From assembly GCF_044324875.1 (NCBI RefSeq), contig NZ_CP172185.1: a stretch of DNA of 64,000 nt. One strand, 5' to 3'. Numbering within the stretch: position 1 is the stretch's first letter; each line of letters starts with the position of its first letter. The notes beneath the pieces were generated by a model. It was given only the letters and a program-made list of their open reading frames with translations. It searched no databases and was not told where the DNA came from. This document shows, piece by piece, positions 13,279 to 59,890 of the stretch. The DNA comes from Escherichia coli. Lineage in GTDB: Bacteria > Pseudomonadota > Gammaproteobacteria > Enterobacterales > Enterobacteriaceae. The position numbers and the translations under genes were made by a program.

Positions 13279-13377
13279 AATTTGCTCCTTATCGGTGGTT
13301 AAGATTTACTGGTGTAATAAATGAAAAAGCCACGTCTCCCGGAGAAGACGCGGCCTGATGGGTGAAATGAATGACGT

Positions 13378-13611: not shown

Positions 13612-13689
13612 ATCTGTTTTCTCCTGATAAATAAAAAGCCTCTGCCACGCGTTGTGACAGAGGCTGAAGCATGAAACTGACTTCAGGGA

Positions 13690-16857: not shown

Positions 16858-20239
<3,382 letters not shown>

Positions 20240-20553: not shown

Positions 20554-21423
20554 TCAGAAGAAAATCCAGTTCCATACAGCGCGGGCAACAGAGACCACCG
20601 AGTCACGGACGGCACGCAGAACCGTGCGTGCAACAGAGGCAATACAGACGCTCTCCGCCGTGTCAAATATCCGGTCCACCGCACCGGTAAACTGTTCACG
20701 GGCCTGAGACCGGACAGATTCCGTGCGCAGCTCGTCCTGCAGGCGGGTCATCAGGGGACTGGCGGCATGGTCGGGAAGCGCTGTCATGAGCGCACTGACC
20801 AGCGTATCCAGTTCCCAGCCGGTGCGGGCCGATACGGCCACAACCGGATGTACGGGCCGGAACAGACGGAATACCGCCTCCGTTTTTTCGCGAATATTCT
20901 GTGCCTGTGCGGGAGAAGGCTGAATACCGGCCATATCCCATTCATGGCAGGGCTCCGTTTTGTCGGCCTGCGTCACCACAAACAGCACCTGCTGATGTCC
21001 CCGGTGCAGGATGTGTCGCCAGAAATACTCATCCACAGACAGGGCGCGGTCATCGGCTTTAATCAGCCACAGCACCAGGTCCAGTTCGGGCAGAATGTCA
21101 CGGTACAGGGCTTCATACTCTGCATCCCTGTCCCGGCTCTCGCCCACCCCGGGCAGGTCAGTGATAACCATGCTGTGACCGTGGCCACTCAGACGGAAGC
21201 GCCGCACTTCCCGGGTGCCGGCGTGAACATCACTGACCGGGGTGACCTCCCCCTGAAACAGTGCATTACAGAGTGAGGATTTACCGGCCCCGCTTTTACC
21301 CATAATGCCAATCACGGGTTCGTGACTGGTGAGTTTGCGCAGATGTTCCAGGATGTGACGGGAAAGTGAGTAAGGCAGGGAGGAGAGCGGTTTTTCAATT
21401 GCCTCAATGGCATCAGACGGATT
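20554..21423 (-). CDS. YeeP/YfjP/YkfA-family GTPase (50S ribosome-binding GTPase fold)
   Basis: P-loop GIMGKSGAGKSS, G3 DLPG; start placed at the internal ATG (MNPSDAIEA). Confidence 0.8.
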   Translation of the reverse strand, partial: NPSDAIEAIEKPLSSLPYSLSRHILEHLRKLTSHEPVIGIMGKSGAGKSSLCNALFQGEVTPVSDVHAGTREVRRFRLSGHGHSMVITDLPGVGESRDRDAEYEALYRDILPELDLVLWLIKADDRALSVDEYFWRHILHRGHQQVLFVVTQADKTEPCHEWDMAGIQPSPAQAQNIREKTEAVFRLFRPVHPVVAVSARTGWELDTLVSALMTALPDHAASPLMTRLQDELRTESVRSQAREQFTGAVDRIFDTAESVCIASVARTVLRAVRDSVVSVARAVWNWIFF

Positions 21424-22656
21424 CATACATGTATTCCCGGTGAAAAAAGACAAAACCCCGCGCACCGGAAAGGTGGCGGGGGATTCACGGAGATAATATC
21501 TGTCTGAAATTGTTTTGAATCGATGGGATTGTTGCGTATTAACATGAAGGAGATCAGGACTTATCCGTTACTGGGTGATCTCCTTCCATGAAAATACGCC
21601 GTTATTGTTAAACAGCAGGCTGATTTCTCCGTAAAGGGGAAAATATTTATCGGCTGTATGATTATCAGGTGTGTCTGTGTTTACTGCTGTGAGTATTTTT
21701 TAGTGTATTGTGGGGGAGATGTCAGTGGGAGATATTAAATTTACGTTTATAATTATCTTACTTCTTCTGTGTGTTTTTTATAAGAGTGCACACGTAATGA
21801 TATCTGTTGATACCATGTGGTTAAGTGTTTCCCTTCCTGGTCATGCGTAATGATTAAATGCTTTTGTGACACCATTCTTCCGGTCTGAATATTTATCCCG
21901 TTCTTTTTTATTTGTGCAGTGATACTGTCGGAAGAGAATTCAGTAATGTGAGGTGTCCTGGTCAGGATAATATCTGCTGAGATATTATTAGTTGAGGGTG
22001 TTTTTACTGAGCAAAAGCTGGCTTTTAATTCCTGTACTGAAACACTGTCGCTCGTCCGGGGTTAACTGAAACTGGATGATGATGTAAAATGAAGGCTGTT
22101 TTTGTGTTTGTCGAAGAAGTGTTATTTTAATCCATTCTCATCATTGGCTGGCGATTATACAGAAGTATTTGAAGAAAAAATGGTGCATTTTATCTGTGTC
22201 AGCAGGGAAGAAGTATTTTATTGATGTATCAGTATTAAATGGTTTTTGTTATTTATAAAAATGTCATCCTGTCCATAGAATATTGTACTCAGCATTCAGT
22301 GCAGGAACTGTAGTCTTCTTTATTTTATTCTTCTTCAGGAGGGGGGTGATTCCTGAAGGCGTTATTCCCGGTGTTCTGTTTATGATTCTTCCCGGCAGGA
22401 AACCGGTATCTGCAATACCCGGGATGATGCTTTTTGTTCGTACGTGGTTGTGTAAAATTTGAATAGTGGATGTGCTCCGAAGGGAAGGAGGGGACACACA
22501 GATTCATTTTGTCTTTCTTCAGCAGCAAAATACACTGTGGTTATTATTTAACCATTAAATCAACAAAAATTTTTACCTCATATTGATTTGACTGCTATTT
22601 TTGCTATTAATAGCCAGAATTGCAGTGCTTTTATATCTGTGTATAGTGAGGTTACT

Positions 22657-24141
22657 ATGTCATTCGGTCAGCCTTGTGATGAGTTTCCCCTGAGTTCGCT
22701 GCCTCCACTCATTCGTGATGCCGTTATTGAAGCTCAGCAAATTACGCAGGCTCCCCTTGGGCTTGTGGCAGCGTCTGCCCTGGGCGCTGTTTCACTTGTC
22801 TGCCAGAATCTGATTGATGTCTGCAGACTGAATACACTGCGGGGGCCGGTCTCTCTTTTTTTCCTGACGCTTGCCGAGTCCGGAGAACGAAAAACCGCAG
22901 TGGACAAATTATTAATGAAGCCCCTGTACCAGCAGGAGATGCAGTTATATTCCAGATACAAAAGTGAACTGGCTGTCTGGAAAAACAAGGAAGAGCTTTT
23001 AAAGGCTCAGAAAAAAGCATTGTTGTCAAAACTGAATAAAGAACTCCGCAAAGGCGCGGATGAGTCAGAAACCCTCAGACAACTGGAAGTACTTCAGAAA
23101 AACAGTGCGGAAGAACCTGTGAGGTATAAATTCATTTTTAATGATGCCACGACTGCGGCAATTAAGAATCAGCTTTGTGGTAAATGGCGTTCAGTTGGTA
23201 TTATGTCAGATGAAGCCGGTATTATATTTGATGGATATACCCTGTCTGAGTTGCCTTTTATTAACAAAATGTGGGATGGCTCTGTATTGTCTGTGGACAG
23301 AAAGAATGAACCCGAACAGATGATTGAAAATGCCAGAATGACGTTATCCCTCATGGTGCAACCCGGTCTTTTTGACCGATATATGGAGCGAAAAGGTTCT
23401 GTTGCCAGGGACAGTGGTTTTCTTGCCCGTTGTCTTATCAGTAAACCTGCAACCACGCAGGGGAAACGCTTTATTAACGGAGCTGTGATTCCGGGAGGAT
23501 CATTAACGGCATTTCATGAACGATTAATGGAACTGGCCAGAGGCAGTATTGAAAAATCCAGTGAGGATGAACGGTATTGTCTGCATTTTTCGCCTGAAGC
23601 GCAAAAAATATTTATTGAGCACTATAATGTTCTGGAGCAGGATTTATCCCCTTCCGGACCCTTAAGCCCGTTTCGGGGACATGTTTCAAAAAAAACAGAA
23701 AACATTGCAAGAATTGCAGCGTTATTTCAGTATTTCAGCTATGGTGAAGGGAAAATCTCTGCCGATATCATGACGTCTGCTGTCGTAATAAGTTCGTGGT
23801 ACACAGATGAATATAAAAAATTATTTGCGTTACCTGATGAATCTGAACTGCAGCAGAAGGACGCCGAGGAGCTGTTCGACTGGCTCATTGAGGAGTGCCG
23901 CGGAGAATGCCCGCCCCGTGTCAGGAAAAATTATATTCTCCAGTGTGGCCCGGGCCGGTTCAGAAACAGGAAAAAACTGAACGCATTGCTGAACATTCTT
24001 GAATCTCAGTTCAGGCTTTCTGTCGTGCCGGAAGGAAAAACCATGTATGTTCTGCTTCCCCAGATAGCCAGTTTAAAGTTGTCTGATGTCTCTGGTATTT
24101 TTACCTCGGGTTATCACTACAATAAGCTGAGAGCGAAGTAA
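22657..24141 (+). CDS. DUF3987-like protein (YfjI family, primase-associated C-terminal domain type)
   Basis: 494 aa from the ATG with GTGAGG RBS; typical P4-like island gene. Confidence 0.65.
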   Translation: MSFGQPCDEFPLSSLPPLIRDAVIEAQQITQAPLGLVAASALGAVSLVCQNLIDVCRLNTLRGPVSLFFLTLAESGERKTAVDKLLMKPLYQQEMQLYSRYKSELAVWKNKEELLKAQKKALLSKLNKELRKGADESETLRQLEVLQKNSAEEPVRYKFIFNDATTAAIKNQLCGKWRSVGIMSDEAGIIFDGYTLSELPFINKMWDGSVLSVDRKNEPEQMIENARMTLSLMVQPGLFDRYMERKGSVARDSGFLARCLISKPATTQGKRFINGAVIPGGSLTAFHERLMELARGSIEKSSEDERYCLHFSPEAQKIFIEHYNVLEQDLSPSGPLSPFRGHVSKKTENIARIAALFQYFSYGEGKISADIMTSAVVISSWYTDEYKKLFALPDESELQQKDAEELFDWLIEECRGECPPRVRKNYILQCGPGRFRNRKKLNALLNILESQFRLSVVPEGKTMYVLLPQIASLKLSDVSGIFTSGYHYNKLRAK

Positions 24142-25151: not shown

Positions 25152-25358
25152 TTACGGACGGGACTGTGCAATACGCGCCTGCAGCCAGGCTTCCACTTCG
25201 CTTTTCAGCCATCGGGAGCTGCGGCCCATTTTGATGGGCGCAGGAAAGTCACCATCCTTGATGAGTTTGTAAAACCACTTATCGGTCAGGCCGGTCAGTT
25301 GAGTGATAAATGCCATGTCGACCATCTGGTCATCCATCAGTGAAACTGGGGTGATCAT
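25152..25358 (-). CDS. AlpA-family phage/island transcriptional regulator (excisionase-like HTH)
   Basis: 68 aa from the ATG with GGAGG RBS; ...MAFITQLTGLTDKWFYKLIKDGDFPAPIKMGRSSRWLKSEVEAWL is the AlpA fold signature. Confidence 0.7.
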   Translation of the reverse strand: MITPVSLMDDQMVDMAFITQLTGLTDKWFYKLIKDGDFPAPIKMGRSSRWLKSEVEAWLQARIAQSRP

Positions 25359-26015
25359 GAGAATGTTCCTCCGGATGTTGTTAAACCAGCCGGTGTGGTC
25401 ATGAAAACAACGCACCACCTTCACCGGCATAACAACCGGGGAGAAACGTAAAAAATAATCGGGAATGTGACCGCCAGGAGATAAACGGGGAGGTTACGGT
25501 GGCTGAGCCGTACCGGTATGCCGGGTGGTTGTTACGAAACGATGCTTCCGCACGCGTGCGCGATAAAGAAGGGATGATTTTCGTGAGGAAGAGGGGAAAA
25601 CTGGCGTTCTGATAATTGCAGAGTTATTTACGGGGCGGTTACGATGGGGCAGACCGTGTCCGGTGGGCAGGCGACAGGTATCACCGATGGGATAAGACTG
25701 TCTGATTGGTATTATAAATATATAAGAGAGATCAAACACATGAGATCAAATACATGAGTTCATATATGTGAAATAAACACGGTGAGTGTGATCAGTGGGC
25801 ATGATGAGAACGCTGCAAAATGGCATCTGAATCGATCGCAGTTTGGCATTCGAATCGATCATGATTTGGCATCCATCTCCGATCACAGTTTGGCATCACA
25901 ATCGATCACGATTTGGCATGCTTCCGATCATTGATTGGCATCCTGCCAGTCACTCCGGGAATTAACTCTTTTCACCACAGTCTCCATTGCCGTGTTTAAA
26001 CCAGTGGAGACGTCA

Positions 26016-59780: not shown

Positions 59781-59819
59781 TCAGAAGAGGTAAACTGGCG
59801 GAAGATCACAGGAGTCGAA
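59781..59819. repeat. island attachment-site repeat, selC-proximal copy (overlaps the 3' end of selC)
   Basis: direct repeat of 8348-8386. Confidence 0.7.
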
Positions 59820-59890
59820 CCTGCCCGGGACCGCTGGCGGCCCCAACTGGATTTGAAGTCCAGCCGCCTCACCGGAGACGACGATCTTCC
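59796..59890 (-). tRNA. selC: tRNA-Sec (selenocysteine, UCA anticodon)
   Basis: rc of 59796-59890 reads GGAAGATCGTCGTCTCCGGTGAGGCGGCTGGACTTCAAATCCAGTTGGGGCCGCCAGCGGTCCCGGGCAGGTTCGACTCCTGTGATCTTCCGCCA, the E. coli selC sequence (95 nt). Confidence 0.95.

Follow-up and report, generated by a model that had tools for sequence, protein, structure and literature searches.

A 1.23-kb gap between divergent GTPase and yfjI genes of a common Escherichia coli island probably consists of two regulatory ends and a near-neutral AT-rich spacer

We describe here a non-coding interval of 1,230 nt (21427-22656, 38% GC) in a window of 64,000 nucleotides of E. coli DNA, the window being the whole stretch that was analysed. 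The interval lies in a selC-associated genomic island that is common in E. coli. On one side it is flanked by a YeeP/YfjP-type GTPase gene on the - strand (profile match to MMR_HSR1, E 9e-15) and on the other by yfjI on the + strand, which encodes a DUF3987 protein (E 1.3e-95). The interior of the gap occurs in E. coli as three alleles (A, B and C) with many indels and inserted hairpin cassettes. Strains BEN2908 and ETEC1731 have the present allele, and Nissle 1917 and CFT073 have allele B. The features considered below are as follows.

21427..22656, no strand: the whole gap, from the GTPase ATG (21426, - strand) to the yfjI ATG (22657, + strand)
21443..21481, - strand: predicted intrinsic terminator of the GTPase leader, with the stem-loop at 21481-21456 (CCCCGCCACC/GGTGCGCGGGG) and the U-tract at 21455-21443
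21493..21519, - strand: putative sigma-70 promoter box of the GTPase gene, TTCAAA-15-TATTAT
21521..22590, no strand: variable AT-rich interior with no detectable gene or conserved structure
21534..21599, no strand: long, imperfect hairpin cassette with an inner perfect 11-bp stem (21546-21556 / 21576-21586)
22264..22528, - strand: two overlapping ORFs singled out by the original prediction, spurious (indels in alleles B and C, no phase bias, no homologue)
22389..22436, no strand: best-conserved interior block, TTCCCGGCAGGAAACC...GGATGATGCTTTTTG
22591..22626, no strand: palindromic operator-like site of 36 bp, ACTGCTATTTTTGCTATTAATAGCCAGAATTGCAGT (inverted repeat I2)
22648..22659, + strand: yfjI ribosome-binding site (GAGG, 22648-22651) and start codon (22657-22659; start as in PGAP)

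The GTPase start was placed at the ATG at 21426 from the PGAP annotation and the N-termini of homologues. The original prediction had described an AT-rich, gene-free stretch of about 1.2 kb between divergent GTPase and DUF3987 genes, and both the gap and its character are borne out. Its left limit, 21466, was derived from a GTG-extended ORF (20554..21465) that would cross the terminator hairpin, and the true gap is slightly larger. The GC content of the interior is 0.378; the GTPase gene has 0.588, yfjI 0.451 and the window as a whole 0.484. Few long ORFs are what chance leads one to expect in AT-rich DNA; the unusual part is the 1.23-kb gap without a CDS, which is the largest between annotated CDSs in a 50-kb homologous stretch of strain BEN2908 and recurs in 1,857 complete E. 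coli genomes (coverage at least 80%). In none of the 90 listed matches that extend past the first 55 nt of the gap does PGAP annotate a feature under it. The DNA immediately ahead of this GTPase leader differs in other islands.

The two largest ORFs of the gap, at 22264..22497 (77 aa) and 22325..22528 (67 aa), both on the - strand, have no upstream Shine-Dalgarno sequence, in agreement with the earlier reading of them as lacking a ribosome-binding site, and in alleles B and C their frames are broken by indels of 2 and 7 nt. The absence of any credible ORF is likewise upheld by comparison of the alleles. No interior ORF of at least 12 aa is intact across all of them, and over the whole interior the substitutions show no bias by codon phase (chi-square p 0.2-0.96). 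A period-3 signal is missing from the interior overall (power ratio 1.08, p 0.39), as against ratios of 8.1 and 6.4 for the flanking genes.

The slot occupied by the interior is gene-bearing in sister islands, which raises the alternative that the interior is cargo eroded past recognition. Upstream of the GTPase leader there is a ~340-aa gene in two islands and a TIR-domain gene in one, and the corresponding slot of K-12 CP4-57 holds yfjJ-abpBA-yfjM-rnlAB. The interior itself has a stop-free frame of 102 codons on the - strand (21756-22061), and a weak period-3 signal appears in the segment 22271-22570 (ratio 2.3, p 0.03 uncorrected for the number of segments scanned). We regard this alternative as unlikely. 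By our estimate an open frame of that length arises with a chance of ~0.1-0.2 at this composition, and the substitution and periodicity statistics given above are those of non-coding DNA. A concatenated six-frame query of the gap against 5.8 billion proteins returned no match at E <= 0.01, searches of the interior against Pfam and PHROGs returned none, and tblastn/blastx against the same-slot genes of sister islands and 16 loci from other genera found no similarity. Alignment thus identified no decayed gene in the protein, Pfam, PHROGs or neighbouring-island comparisons, and the interior was rejected as a pseudogene in view of this lack of detectable protein or profile similarity and of residual coding statistics.

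The interior diverges between alleles much as silent sites do. Its Jukes-Cantor distances are 0.12-0.30 (with 111-182 gap columns), compared with dS of 0.16-0.23 for yfjI and 0.07-0.13 for the GTPase gene; identity between alleles is mostly 95-100% for the flanking genes and 60-90% for the gap. The interior would therefore appear to be near-neutral, diverging at roughly the synonymous rate of its neighbors under little or no sequence constraint. Two observations speak against a purely neutral spacer: the gap length is kept at 1.14-1.30 kb in all three alleles, and the + strand is strongly and uniformly skewed toward G+T (T 36%, G 23%, A 26%, C 15%). Some 40-nt interior windows are also 80-88% invariant and, as only three alleles are available, weak constraint could act on parts of the interior. 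The best-conserved block contains runs that are invariant across six sequences (22389-22404 and 22422-22436); its folding is no better than that of shuffled sequences, and it was rejected as a structural element. The 10-11 bp phasing of AA/TT dinucleotides expected of curved DNA was not found in the gap.

The hairpin cassette at 21534..21599 is present in alleles A and B and missing from allele C. It folds well (z -3.4 on the + strand, -5.9 on the - strand), and copies of ~84% identity lie downstream of eaaC in phage P-EibC, where the element is annotated as a stem_loop, and downstream of cdtC on pVir68; further chromosomal copies were also found. We rejected the hairpin at 21546-21586 as a conserved regulator because it carries uncompensated mutations in allele B, is deleted in allele C and recurs elsewhere as a cassette.

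The original prediction had suggested regulatory DNA or non-coding RNA at this position. The second suggestion is not supported in the sense of a free-standing structured RNA. A covariance-model scan of 21300-22800 with Rfam matched no family at gathering level, and at E <= 10 the best hit was ciliate telomerase RNA (25.7 bits, where the threshold is 52). An alignment-fold scan found conserved structure confined to the two ends of the gap, with an interior structure conservation index below 0.5. Comparison across islands gave a matching picture, conservation holding for the two ends and failing for the interior, which drifts. The one RNA element in the gap with support from the sequence is the predicted cis-acting terminator of the GTPase leader.

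An unannotated RNA could nevertheless act through its sequence instead of its structure, whether as a small RNA, as an antisense transcript or as an extended leader. It might be, for instance, a Rho target on the - strand, rich in C and poor in G, or a lengthy 5' UTR of yfjI. Promoter-like hexamers are present on both strands (for example at 22252-22281 on the + strand and 21824-21797 on the - strand), a - strand RNA would have more C than G and be A-rich, and the complementarity between promoter box and ribosome-binding site in two related leaders, described below, is suggestive of transcripts initiated upstream in relatives. The promoter-like sites are not enriched, however, with 5 found where 3.5 are expected, and no conserved terminator was identified within the interior. 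Together with the lack of an Rfam match and of conserved interior structure, and with approximately neutral divergence accompanied by large indels, this leaves only a small chance that such an RNA exists.

The left end of the gap (21427-21519, - strand) has the organization of a self-contained expression leader for the GTPase gene, in which a sigma-70 promoter would fire into a strong intrinsic terminator. The putative promoter comprises a -35 element TTCAAA (21519-21514), a spacer ACAATTTCAGACAGA (21513-21499) and a -10 element TATTAT (21498-21493). Our generic promoter scan missed it because its 15-nt spacer falls outside the scanned range of 16-18 nt. The predicted terminator has a GC-rich stem-loop of 10 pairs (dG -18.8 kcal/mol) followed directly by a U-tract, with 10 T in the 12-nt tail, and its stem ends 29 nt before the GTPase ATG. 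It was also picked up by a terminator scan, and the 111-nt leader as a whole has a fold z-score of -2.95.

This architecture recurs in nine leaders, down to 51% protein identity. The hexamers retain their positions in all nine (9/9), with a 15-nt spacer, a distance of 11-22 nt to a GC-rich hairpin of 7-10 bp, and a T-rich tail. In the eight tabulated leaders (those other than ykfA) the tail has 9-10 T in 12 positions and 27-30 nt separate the end of the stem from the ATG. The hairpins belong to at least four unrelated sequence kinds that share the same architecture; since they are unrelated in sequence, a joint MAFFT/RNAalifold alignment is unsuitable and the leaders were tabulated one by one. 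The promoter spacer, AATTTCAGAYAGA, is by comparison nearly invariant in 7 of the 8 leaders (alignment A2). The leader module is present in 4,255 of 5,426 genomes (identity at least 95%), or ~78% of the complete genomes of E. coli, most often as two copies. Where the upstream DNA of other islands differs, homology extends only to the -35 element, at about 21520.

The closest parallels are the promoters of K-12 ykfA (CP4-6) and yfjP (CP4-57), where TTGAAA-15-TATCAT appears among the RpoD-holoenzyme genomic SELEX promoters (PMC3946193). These share with the present leader the gene family, the hexamer positions, the unusual 15-nt spacer with its core TTCAGAYAGA, and the geometry of hairpin and U-tract. 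They differ in that the -35 and -10 elements here are TTCAAA and TATTAT and the hairpin is unrelated in sequence. RNA polymerase binding is thus known for the K-12 paralogues, although the SELEX entries list the promoter only and not the leader terminator (PMC3946193). The K-12 Term-seq supplements have no yfjP or ykfA entry.

Some features fit less well with the promoter interpretation. The -35 element matches at only 4 of 6 positions and a 15-nt spacer is short for sigma-70. In the IMG/VR leaders L035 and L036 the spacer box is perfectly complementary to sequence beside the Shine-Dalgarno site, which a simple promoter reading does not predict and which points to an origin further upstream for at least some transcripts. 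In some sister islands the gene upstream ends inside the box, and there the hairpin could simply be the terminator of that gene.

If the promoter and terminator function as predicted, most transcripts should stop after ~45 nt unless termination is overridden, the terminator lying between the promoter and the ATG. We infer, assuming that termination is efficient, that the leader works as a switch, by attenuation or antitermination, controlling the GTPase gene and the genes that follow it in the same direction.

A small protein might also be encoded in the gap, and there are two candidates. One is a + strand ORF at 22384-22462, across the best-conserved block, of 26 aa, or 38 aa if started from the GTG at 22348, which has a good AGGAGG ahead of it. 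This ORF was rejected: alleles A and B differ by 8 non-synonymous changes to 1 synonymous, the GTG is lost in B, and the frame is truncated in C. The other is a 21-codon leader ORF running from GTG 21488 to TGA 21423 (VNPPPPFRCAGFCLFSPGIHV), whose stop overlaps the GTPase ATG as ATGA. It is intact in all E. coli alleles, and its proline run falls on the 5' arm of the terminator, so that a ribosome stalled at PPPP would make a neat antitermination device. The leader ORF has no Shine-Dalgarno sequence, however, and its conservation follows from that of the underlying DNA. The peptide is absent from the K-12 yfjP and ykfA leaders and from leaders L035-L037, all of which retain the terminator. Taken together, we consider a small protein from either ORF extremely unlikely.

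The right end of the gap contains a 36-bp palindrome of two direct and two inverted GCTATT units, with its center 49 nt ahead of the yfjI start codon. Nothing else in the gap matches the DNA upstream of YfjI homologues in other genera. K-12 CP4-57 has the palindrome in front of yfjI, as do 14 of 16 loci from other genera, and its center lies 59-62 nt before the start in most of these. The palindrome occurs once in the 64-kb window and its units occur nowhere else there. About 90% of its cells are symmetric and there is no covariation beyond that of shuffled alignments, and it was rejected as an RNA hairpin because it is conserved in sequence and not by compensatory change. An inverted repeat that is held at a fixed position upstream of yfjI and conserved in sequence in distant relatives has the characteristics of an operator. 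The palindrome would accordingly be a protein-binding site of the yfjI promoter.

The context of the palindrome differs from that in CP4-57. All 16 loci from other genera, and K-12 as well, have an AlpA-like gene whose end lies 110-140 nt ahead of yfjI, an arrangement that recalls the int-alpA-replication module of Gram-negative phage-inducible chromosomal islands (PICIs; PMC6092414), and in CP4-57 and 14 of the 16 loci the palindrome lies between the two genes. Here, unlike in CP4-57, yfjI and the GTPase gene diverge, the AlpA-family gene lies past yfjI on the other strand, and ~1.1 kb of additional spacer precedes the palindrome. The palindrome has stayed with yfjI although the AlpA-family gene is no longer adjacent, and elsewhere it is found downstream of two unrelated AlpA classes. 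It thus tracks YfjI and not the type or position of AlpA, which favors autoregulation by YfjI, a putative replication protein.

Replication-initiator genes, such as F RepE and pPS10 RepA, have autoregulatory inverted-repeat operators. The palindrome resembles these in being a compact inverted repeat of short units directly upstream of a putative replication gene and in being conserved with yfjI and not with the neighboring genes; it differs in that matching direct iterons were not found elsewhere in the 64-kb window. Besides YfjI, the favored candidate, possible binders are the AlpA-family protein and the host regulator YbaO/DecR, a table in PMC6237786 placing K-12 yfjI among the previously identified targets of the latter. 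A search by sequence for a relative of YfjI with a solved structure found none, and the palindrome sequence was not found in the literature searched.

A palindrome made of repeated hexamers beside AT-rich DNA could alternatively mark a replication or transfer origin served by YfjI, with the palindrome as initiator site and the AT-rich DNA as melting region. DUF3987 is used as a primase marker of phage-satellite elements (PMC10803314), and in PICI-type islands sets of iterons flank an AT-rich region (PMC6092414). In PICIs, though, the origin follows the replication gene and comprises two iteron arrays (PMC6092414), whereas the gap has a single compact palindrome, set at a constant distance ahead of a start codon as is typical of an operator. 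No iteron family was found in the gap and no further copies of the palindrome in the 64 kb; the hexamer TATCTG is present six times in the gap, within the range that shuffled sequences give for some 6-mer. In other genera the alpA-yfjI spacer that contains the palindrome is only 110-140 nt long and has no large AT-rich block. An iteron-type (PICI/SaPI) origin was rejected, as two direct-repeat arrays around an AT-rich segment are not present, and an origin of any kind is very unlikely.

From these comparisons it is probable that the gap consists of two regulatory ends, the GTPase leader and the yfjI palindrome, with a near-neutral AT-rich spacer between them. The earlier suggestion of regulatory DNA would then hold for ~95 nt at the left end (promoter and leader terminator) and ~70 nt at the right (palindrome), and not for the rest. 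The ~1.07 kb in the middle, filling the slot that carries cargo genes in sister islands, would be under little or no constraint, gaining substitutions approximately neutrally together with indels and hairpin cassettes. Any role it has would probably depend on its bulk alone, as a spacer or insulator separating the divergent promoters, and it would be a likely target of the AT-binding silencer H-NS. On this interpretation the gap hides no new gene or RNA family and annotators can safely leave its interior empty. Both cis-elements, the leader and the palindrome, occur very widely in E. coli and related bacteria, and descriptions of them were not found in the literature searched. The leader terminator offers a handle on how the genes of common CP4-type islands, the GTPase gene first among them, stay low or are switched on, and the palindrome a starting point for the function of the uncharacterized YfjI.

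The most likely means of overriding the leader terminator would be an island-encoded processive antiterminator, for which the promoter spacer is a candidate loading site. The island has an AlpA-family ORF at 25152-25430 on the - strand (PF05930 Phage_AlpA, E 1.8e-8; PGAP calls its orthologue an AlpA family regulator). [quoted passage not shown] The leader has in common with such Q/AlpA cassettes (lambda PR'-tR' and P. aeruginosa PalpB-tB, PMC7969949) a conserved -35/-10 spacer, a terminator that separates the promoter from the first gene, a long run of genes in the same direction behind it, and an AlpA-family gene carried by the element itself. It departs from the lambda Q cassette in being much shorter, and from the P. 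aeruginosa system in that the AlpA-binding motif GGGACGN5GGTA known there is missing from the promoter; nor is this motif enriched in the window (44 occurrences against 37 expected). BLAST found no similarity between the AlpA-family protein of the island and K-12 AlpA.

We advance only as a tentative and rather doubtful proposal that leaders of YeeP/YfjP/YkfA-type GTPase genes are Q-like loading sites for the island AlpA-family protein, induction of which would make RNA polymerase terminator-resistant. Were this so, AlpA induced by a helper phage or by stress would bring about read-through of the leader and of further terminators in the long array, and cryptic CP4-type islands would be a single inducible regulon with a defined switch, the yfjI palindrome setting expression of the replication gene separately. 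The array behind the leader includes the GTPase gene and genes for Ag43/Cah adhesins, anti-restriction functions, RadC, CbeA and CbtA-family toxins.

The stretch between the divergent GTPase (- strand) and yfjI (+ strand) genes is gene-free, as the original prediction held, with bounds that shift to 21427-22656 (1,230 nt). These bounds follow from the start codons of the two genes: the GTPase starts at ATG 21426 and not at the GTG-extended position 21465, as indicated by the PGAP annotation, the N-termini of homologues and a terminator lying inside the GTG extension, and yfjI starts at ATG 22657, which is preceded by GAGG. The listed records that span the gap carry no annotated feature under it, and the 50-kb annotated homologous stretch of strain BEN2908 contains no larger CDS-free interval. 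Gap sequence is found in 2,794 of 5,426 complete E. coli genomes, at a median of two places per genome, and 1,857 genomes carry at least 80% of it. The interior of the gap (~21521-22590) has a GC content of 37.8%, versus 58.8% and 45.1% for the flanking genes, and is uniformly skewed throughout 21521-22590 (36% T, 23% G, 26% A and 15% C on the + strand). This strong G+T skew coexists with the lack of any coding signal.

The gap lies in a genomic island that adjoins tRNA-Sec (59800-59890) and is nearly identical to the selC-associated island of BEN2908, an avian pathogenic strain. The main features in and around it are as follows.

Left of the gap (-): co-directional array of GTPase, Ag43-type autotransporter, DUF932, anti-restriction, RadC, DUF987, YeeU/CbtA, DUF5983, DUF957 and DUF4942 genes
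19026-20239 (+): IS3-family element, with orfA at 19026-19373 and orfB at 19493-20239
21481-21456 (-): predicted terminator hairpin of the GTPase leader, 10 bp, GC-rich, 11 nt past the -10 box and followed by UUUUGUCUUUUUU
21519-21514 and 21498-21493 (-): predicted promoter box of the GTPase leader, TTCAAA and TATTAT with a 15-nt spacer
21534-21599: hairpin cassette of ~66 nt, z -3.4 (+) and -5.9 (-), missing from allele C
Right of the gap: yfjI (DUF3987); on the opposite strand a hypothetical gene and an AlpA-family gene; then an Hha-family gene

The IS3-family insertion shortens the Ag43/Cah-type autotransporter (16858-19041, -) to 727 aa; in BEN2908 the same gene is annotated as partial, with its N-terminus missing. 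The sole Rfam match near the gap, to isrC (RF01387, 147 bits) at 19058-19180 (+), overlies the start of the orfA transposase gene (HTH_Tnp_1) of the element inside the Ag43 gene. In K-12, isrC shares its strand with yeeP and flu, and the match here is on the opposite strand from that expected, so that it seems to derive from the IS and not to be the yeeP-flu small RNA of K-12.

We found no evidence for a hidden or dead gene in the gap. The largest ORFs are the 77-aa (22264-22497, -) and 67-aa (22325-22528, -) frames that the original prediction had already judged not credible, and both contain indels between alleles, of 2 and 7 nt. No interior ORF of at least 12 aa is intact in every allele, inter-allele substitutions are spread evenly across the three codon phases, and the period-3 power ratio is 1.08 (p 0.39), versus 8.1 and 6.4 in the flanking genes. 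Sister islands carry a ~340-aa gene or other cargo immediately upstream of the same GTPase leader; neither these genes nor any ORF from 19 related loci shows similarity to the gap. Likewise, six-frame segments of at least 28 aa, searched as a pooled query against 5.8 billion proteins, gave no match at E <= 0.01, and Pfam and PHROGs searches returned nothing significant.

The proposal that the region carries regulatory DNA holds for the two ends, which make up ~165 of the 1,230 nt and are kept across islands and genera; the remainder is spacer-like. The alternative of a non-coding RNA finds no support as far as a free-standing structured RNA is concerned: Rfam gives no match in the gap, and an alignment-fold scan detects high structure conservation at the two ends only. 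Six sequences group as three alleles, A (the window), B (Nissle 1917 and CFT073) and C (an ETEC lineage). Identity between alleles is mostly 95-100% in the flanking genes and a mosaic of 60-90% in the gap, the interior alignment containing 111-182 gap columns. The Jukes-Cantor (JC) distance of the interior (0.12-0.30) is similar to the synonymous divergence of yfjI (0.16-0.23) and the GTPase gene (0.07-0.13), and thus the interior overall changes approximately neutrally. All alleles keep the gap at 1.14-1.30 kb. The large indels are hairpin cassettes. Copies ~84% identical to the 21534-21599 cassette lie 3' of eaaC in phage P-EibC, where one is annotated as a stem_loop, and 3' of cdtC on pVir68, with others elsewhere in chromosomes. 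The cassette may represent a portable terminator or else a small mobile hairpin. Allele B has a 71-nt palindromic insertion (~6430-6500 of its locus, L002; after window position ~21855) that includes a perfect 26-nt palindrome (GATCACGGTTTGGCCAAACCGTGATC) between CACGTAATGAT-like direct repeats, suggesting another small inserted element. Within the interior, block 22389-22436 is well conserved and contains GGCAGGAAACCGGTA at 22394-22408 (+). This differs at 2 positions from the P. aeruginosa AlpA motif GGGACGN5GGTA and lacks flanking promoter hexamers, and matches of that grade are about as frequent as chance predicts (44 in the window versus 37 expected). Outside the two ends the gap behaves as spacer, for which a bulk role is plausible, for example as an H-NS target, an insulator between divergent promoters or an empty cargo slot.

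At the right end, 22591-22626 is the only gap segment that matches the upstream regions of 16 YfjI homologues (~50% identity), drawn from Dickeya, Pectobacterium, Siccibacter, Kluyvera, Citrobacter, Erwinia and others. Its consensus, CTGCTATTTCTGCTATTAATAGCGGAATAGCA, is a palindrome of two direct and two inverted GCTATT units. K-12 CP4-57 and 14 of the 16 loci have it, and in most loci its center precedes the start codon by 59-62 nt (49 nt here). The arms are 90% symmetric with no compensating change between them, a pattern that fits a candidate protein-binding operator better than an RNA hairpin. An iteron array was ruled out, since the palindrome is single-copy in the window. In the other genera, yfjI follows the end of an AlpA-like gene by 110-140 nt, and the palindrome is common to two unrelated AlpA classes; here it remains with yfjI while the AlpA-family gene has moved. 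The palindrome thus tracks yfjI and not the class or position of AlpA, making YfjI itself or a host factor the more likely binder. Autoregulation is typical of replication initiators. DUF3987 serves as a 'primase' marker for phage satellites (PMC10803314), and a table in PMC6237786 includes K-12 yfjI among earlier-identified YbaO/DecR targets. A search by sequence for a solved structure among YfjI relatives found none.

At the left end, 4,255 of 5,426 genomes carry a ~95-nt leader module (>=95% identity), its homology ending at ~21520, at the -35 element, regardless of the upstream DNA. A common geometry is seen in nine leaders. Four are the three variants from E. coli and one that is 76% identical, two belong to K-12 yfjP and ykfA, and the last three come from IMG/VR contigs, where GTPase identity falls to 51-60%. 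The eight tabulated leaders keep the hexamers and 15-nt spacing, with a hairpin of 7-10 bp, a tail of 9-10 T in 12 and 27-30 nt from stem end to ATG (29 nt here); the ninth, ykfA, shares the box and likewise has a hairpin and a T-rich tail. The hairpins comprise at least four unrelated sequences; conservation lies in structure and position, and not in sequence. The box derived from these leaders coincides exactly with the 'TTGAAA-15-TATCAT' promoter listed for ykfA and yfjP in a genomic SELEX study with RpoD holoenzyme (PMC3946193), which supports the promoter independently. The promoter spacer, AATTTCAGAYAGA, is conserved above the level of the leader or first codons, and in some leaders this box is complementary to the Shine-Dalgarno or start region. 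Complementarity of the form 5'-(C/G)UGAA...UUCA(C/G)-3' flanks the terminator in 7 of the 9 leaders, including a G:C to C:G swap. A 21-codon ORF at 21423-21488 (-), VNPPPPFRCAGFCLFSPGIHV, has a PPPP run with four proline codons on the terminator 5' arm and ends in ATGA at the GTPase start, without a Shine-Dalgarno sequence. It would make an attractive stalling-based attenuator; it is not conserved in other leaders and so is treated as chance.

What immediately precedes the leader is a slot whose DNA varies from island to island, as in these retrieved loci:

L007, 3045-4067
L008, 3071-4090
L031, 1853 onward
L032, 1-2856

Slot contents elsewhere include a ~340-aa gene annotated as 'transcriptional regulator' or hypothetical, a TIR-domain gene, and the AbpAB and RnlAB defence genes (K-12 CP4-57). 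The slot looks like a cargo or defence hotspot with its edge at the promoter's -35 element.

Because the promoter box would fire straight into the leader terminator, the GTPase gene may be controlled through attenuation. Of the described systems, Q/AlpA-type antitermination comes closest in its logic: in P. aeruginosa, AlpA binds DNA between -35 and -10, and RNA polymerase then passes a terminator just before the first gene (PMC7969949). As in that system, the island codes for an AlpA-family protein; unlike it, the leader lacks the Pseudomonas binding motif, and we infer AlpA-type antitermination here by analogy only. The elements of the gap all belong to known kinds; the two at its ends appear undescribed in the searched literature, and both are testable. 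Strong intrinsic-terminator-like hairpins (10-13 bp stems and T-runs) also occur at 13327-13356, 13637-13665 and 9395-9421, all (-), within the co-directional array downstream of the GTPase gene, and would matter if a terminator-resistant polymerase transcribes the array.
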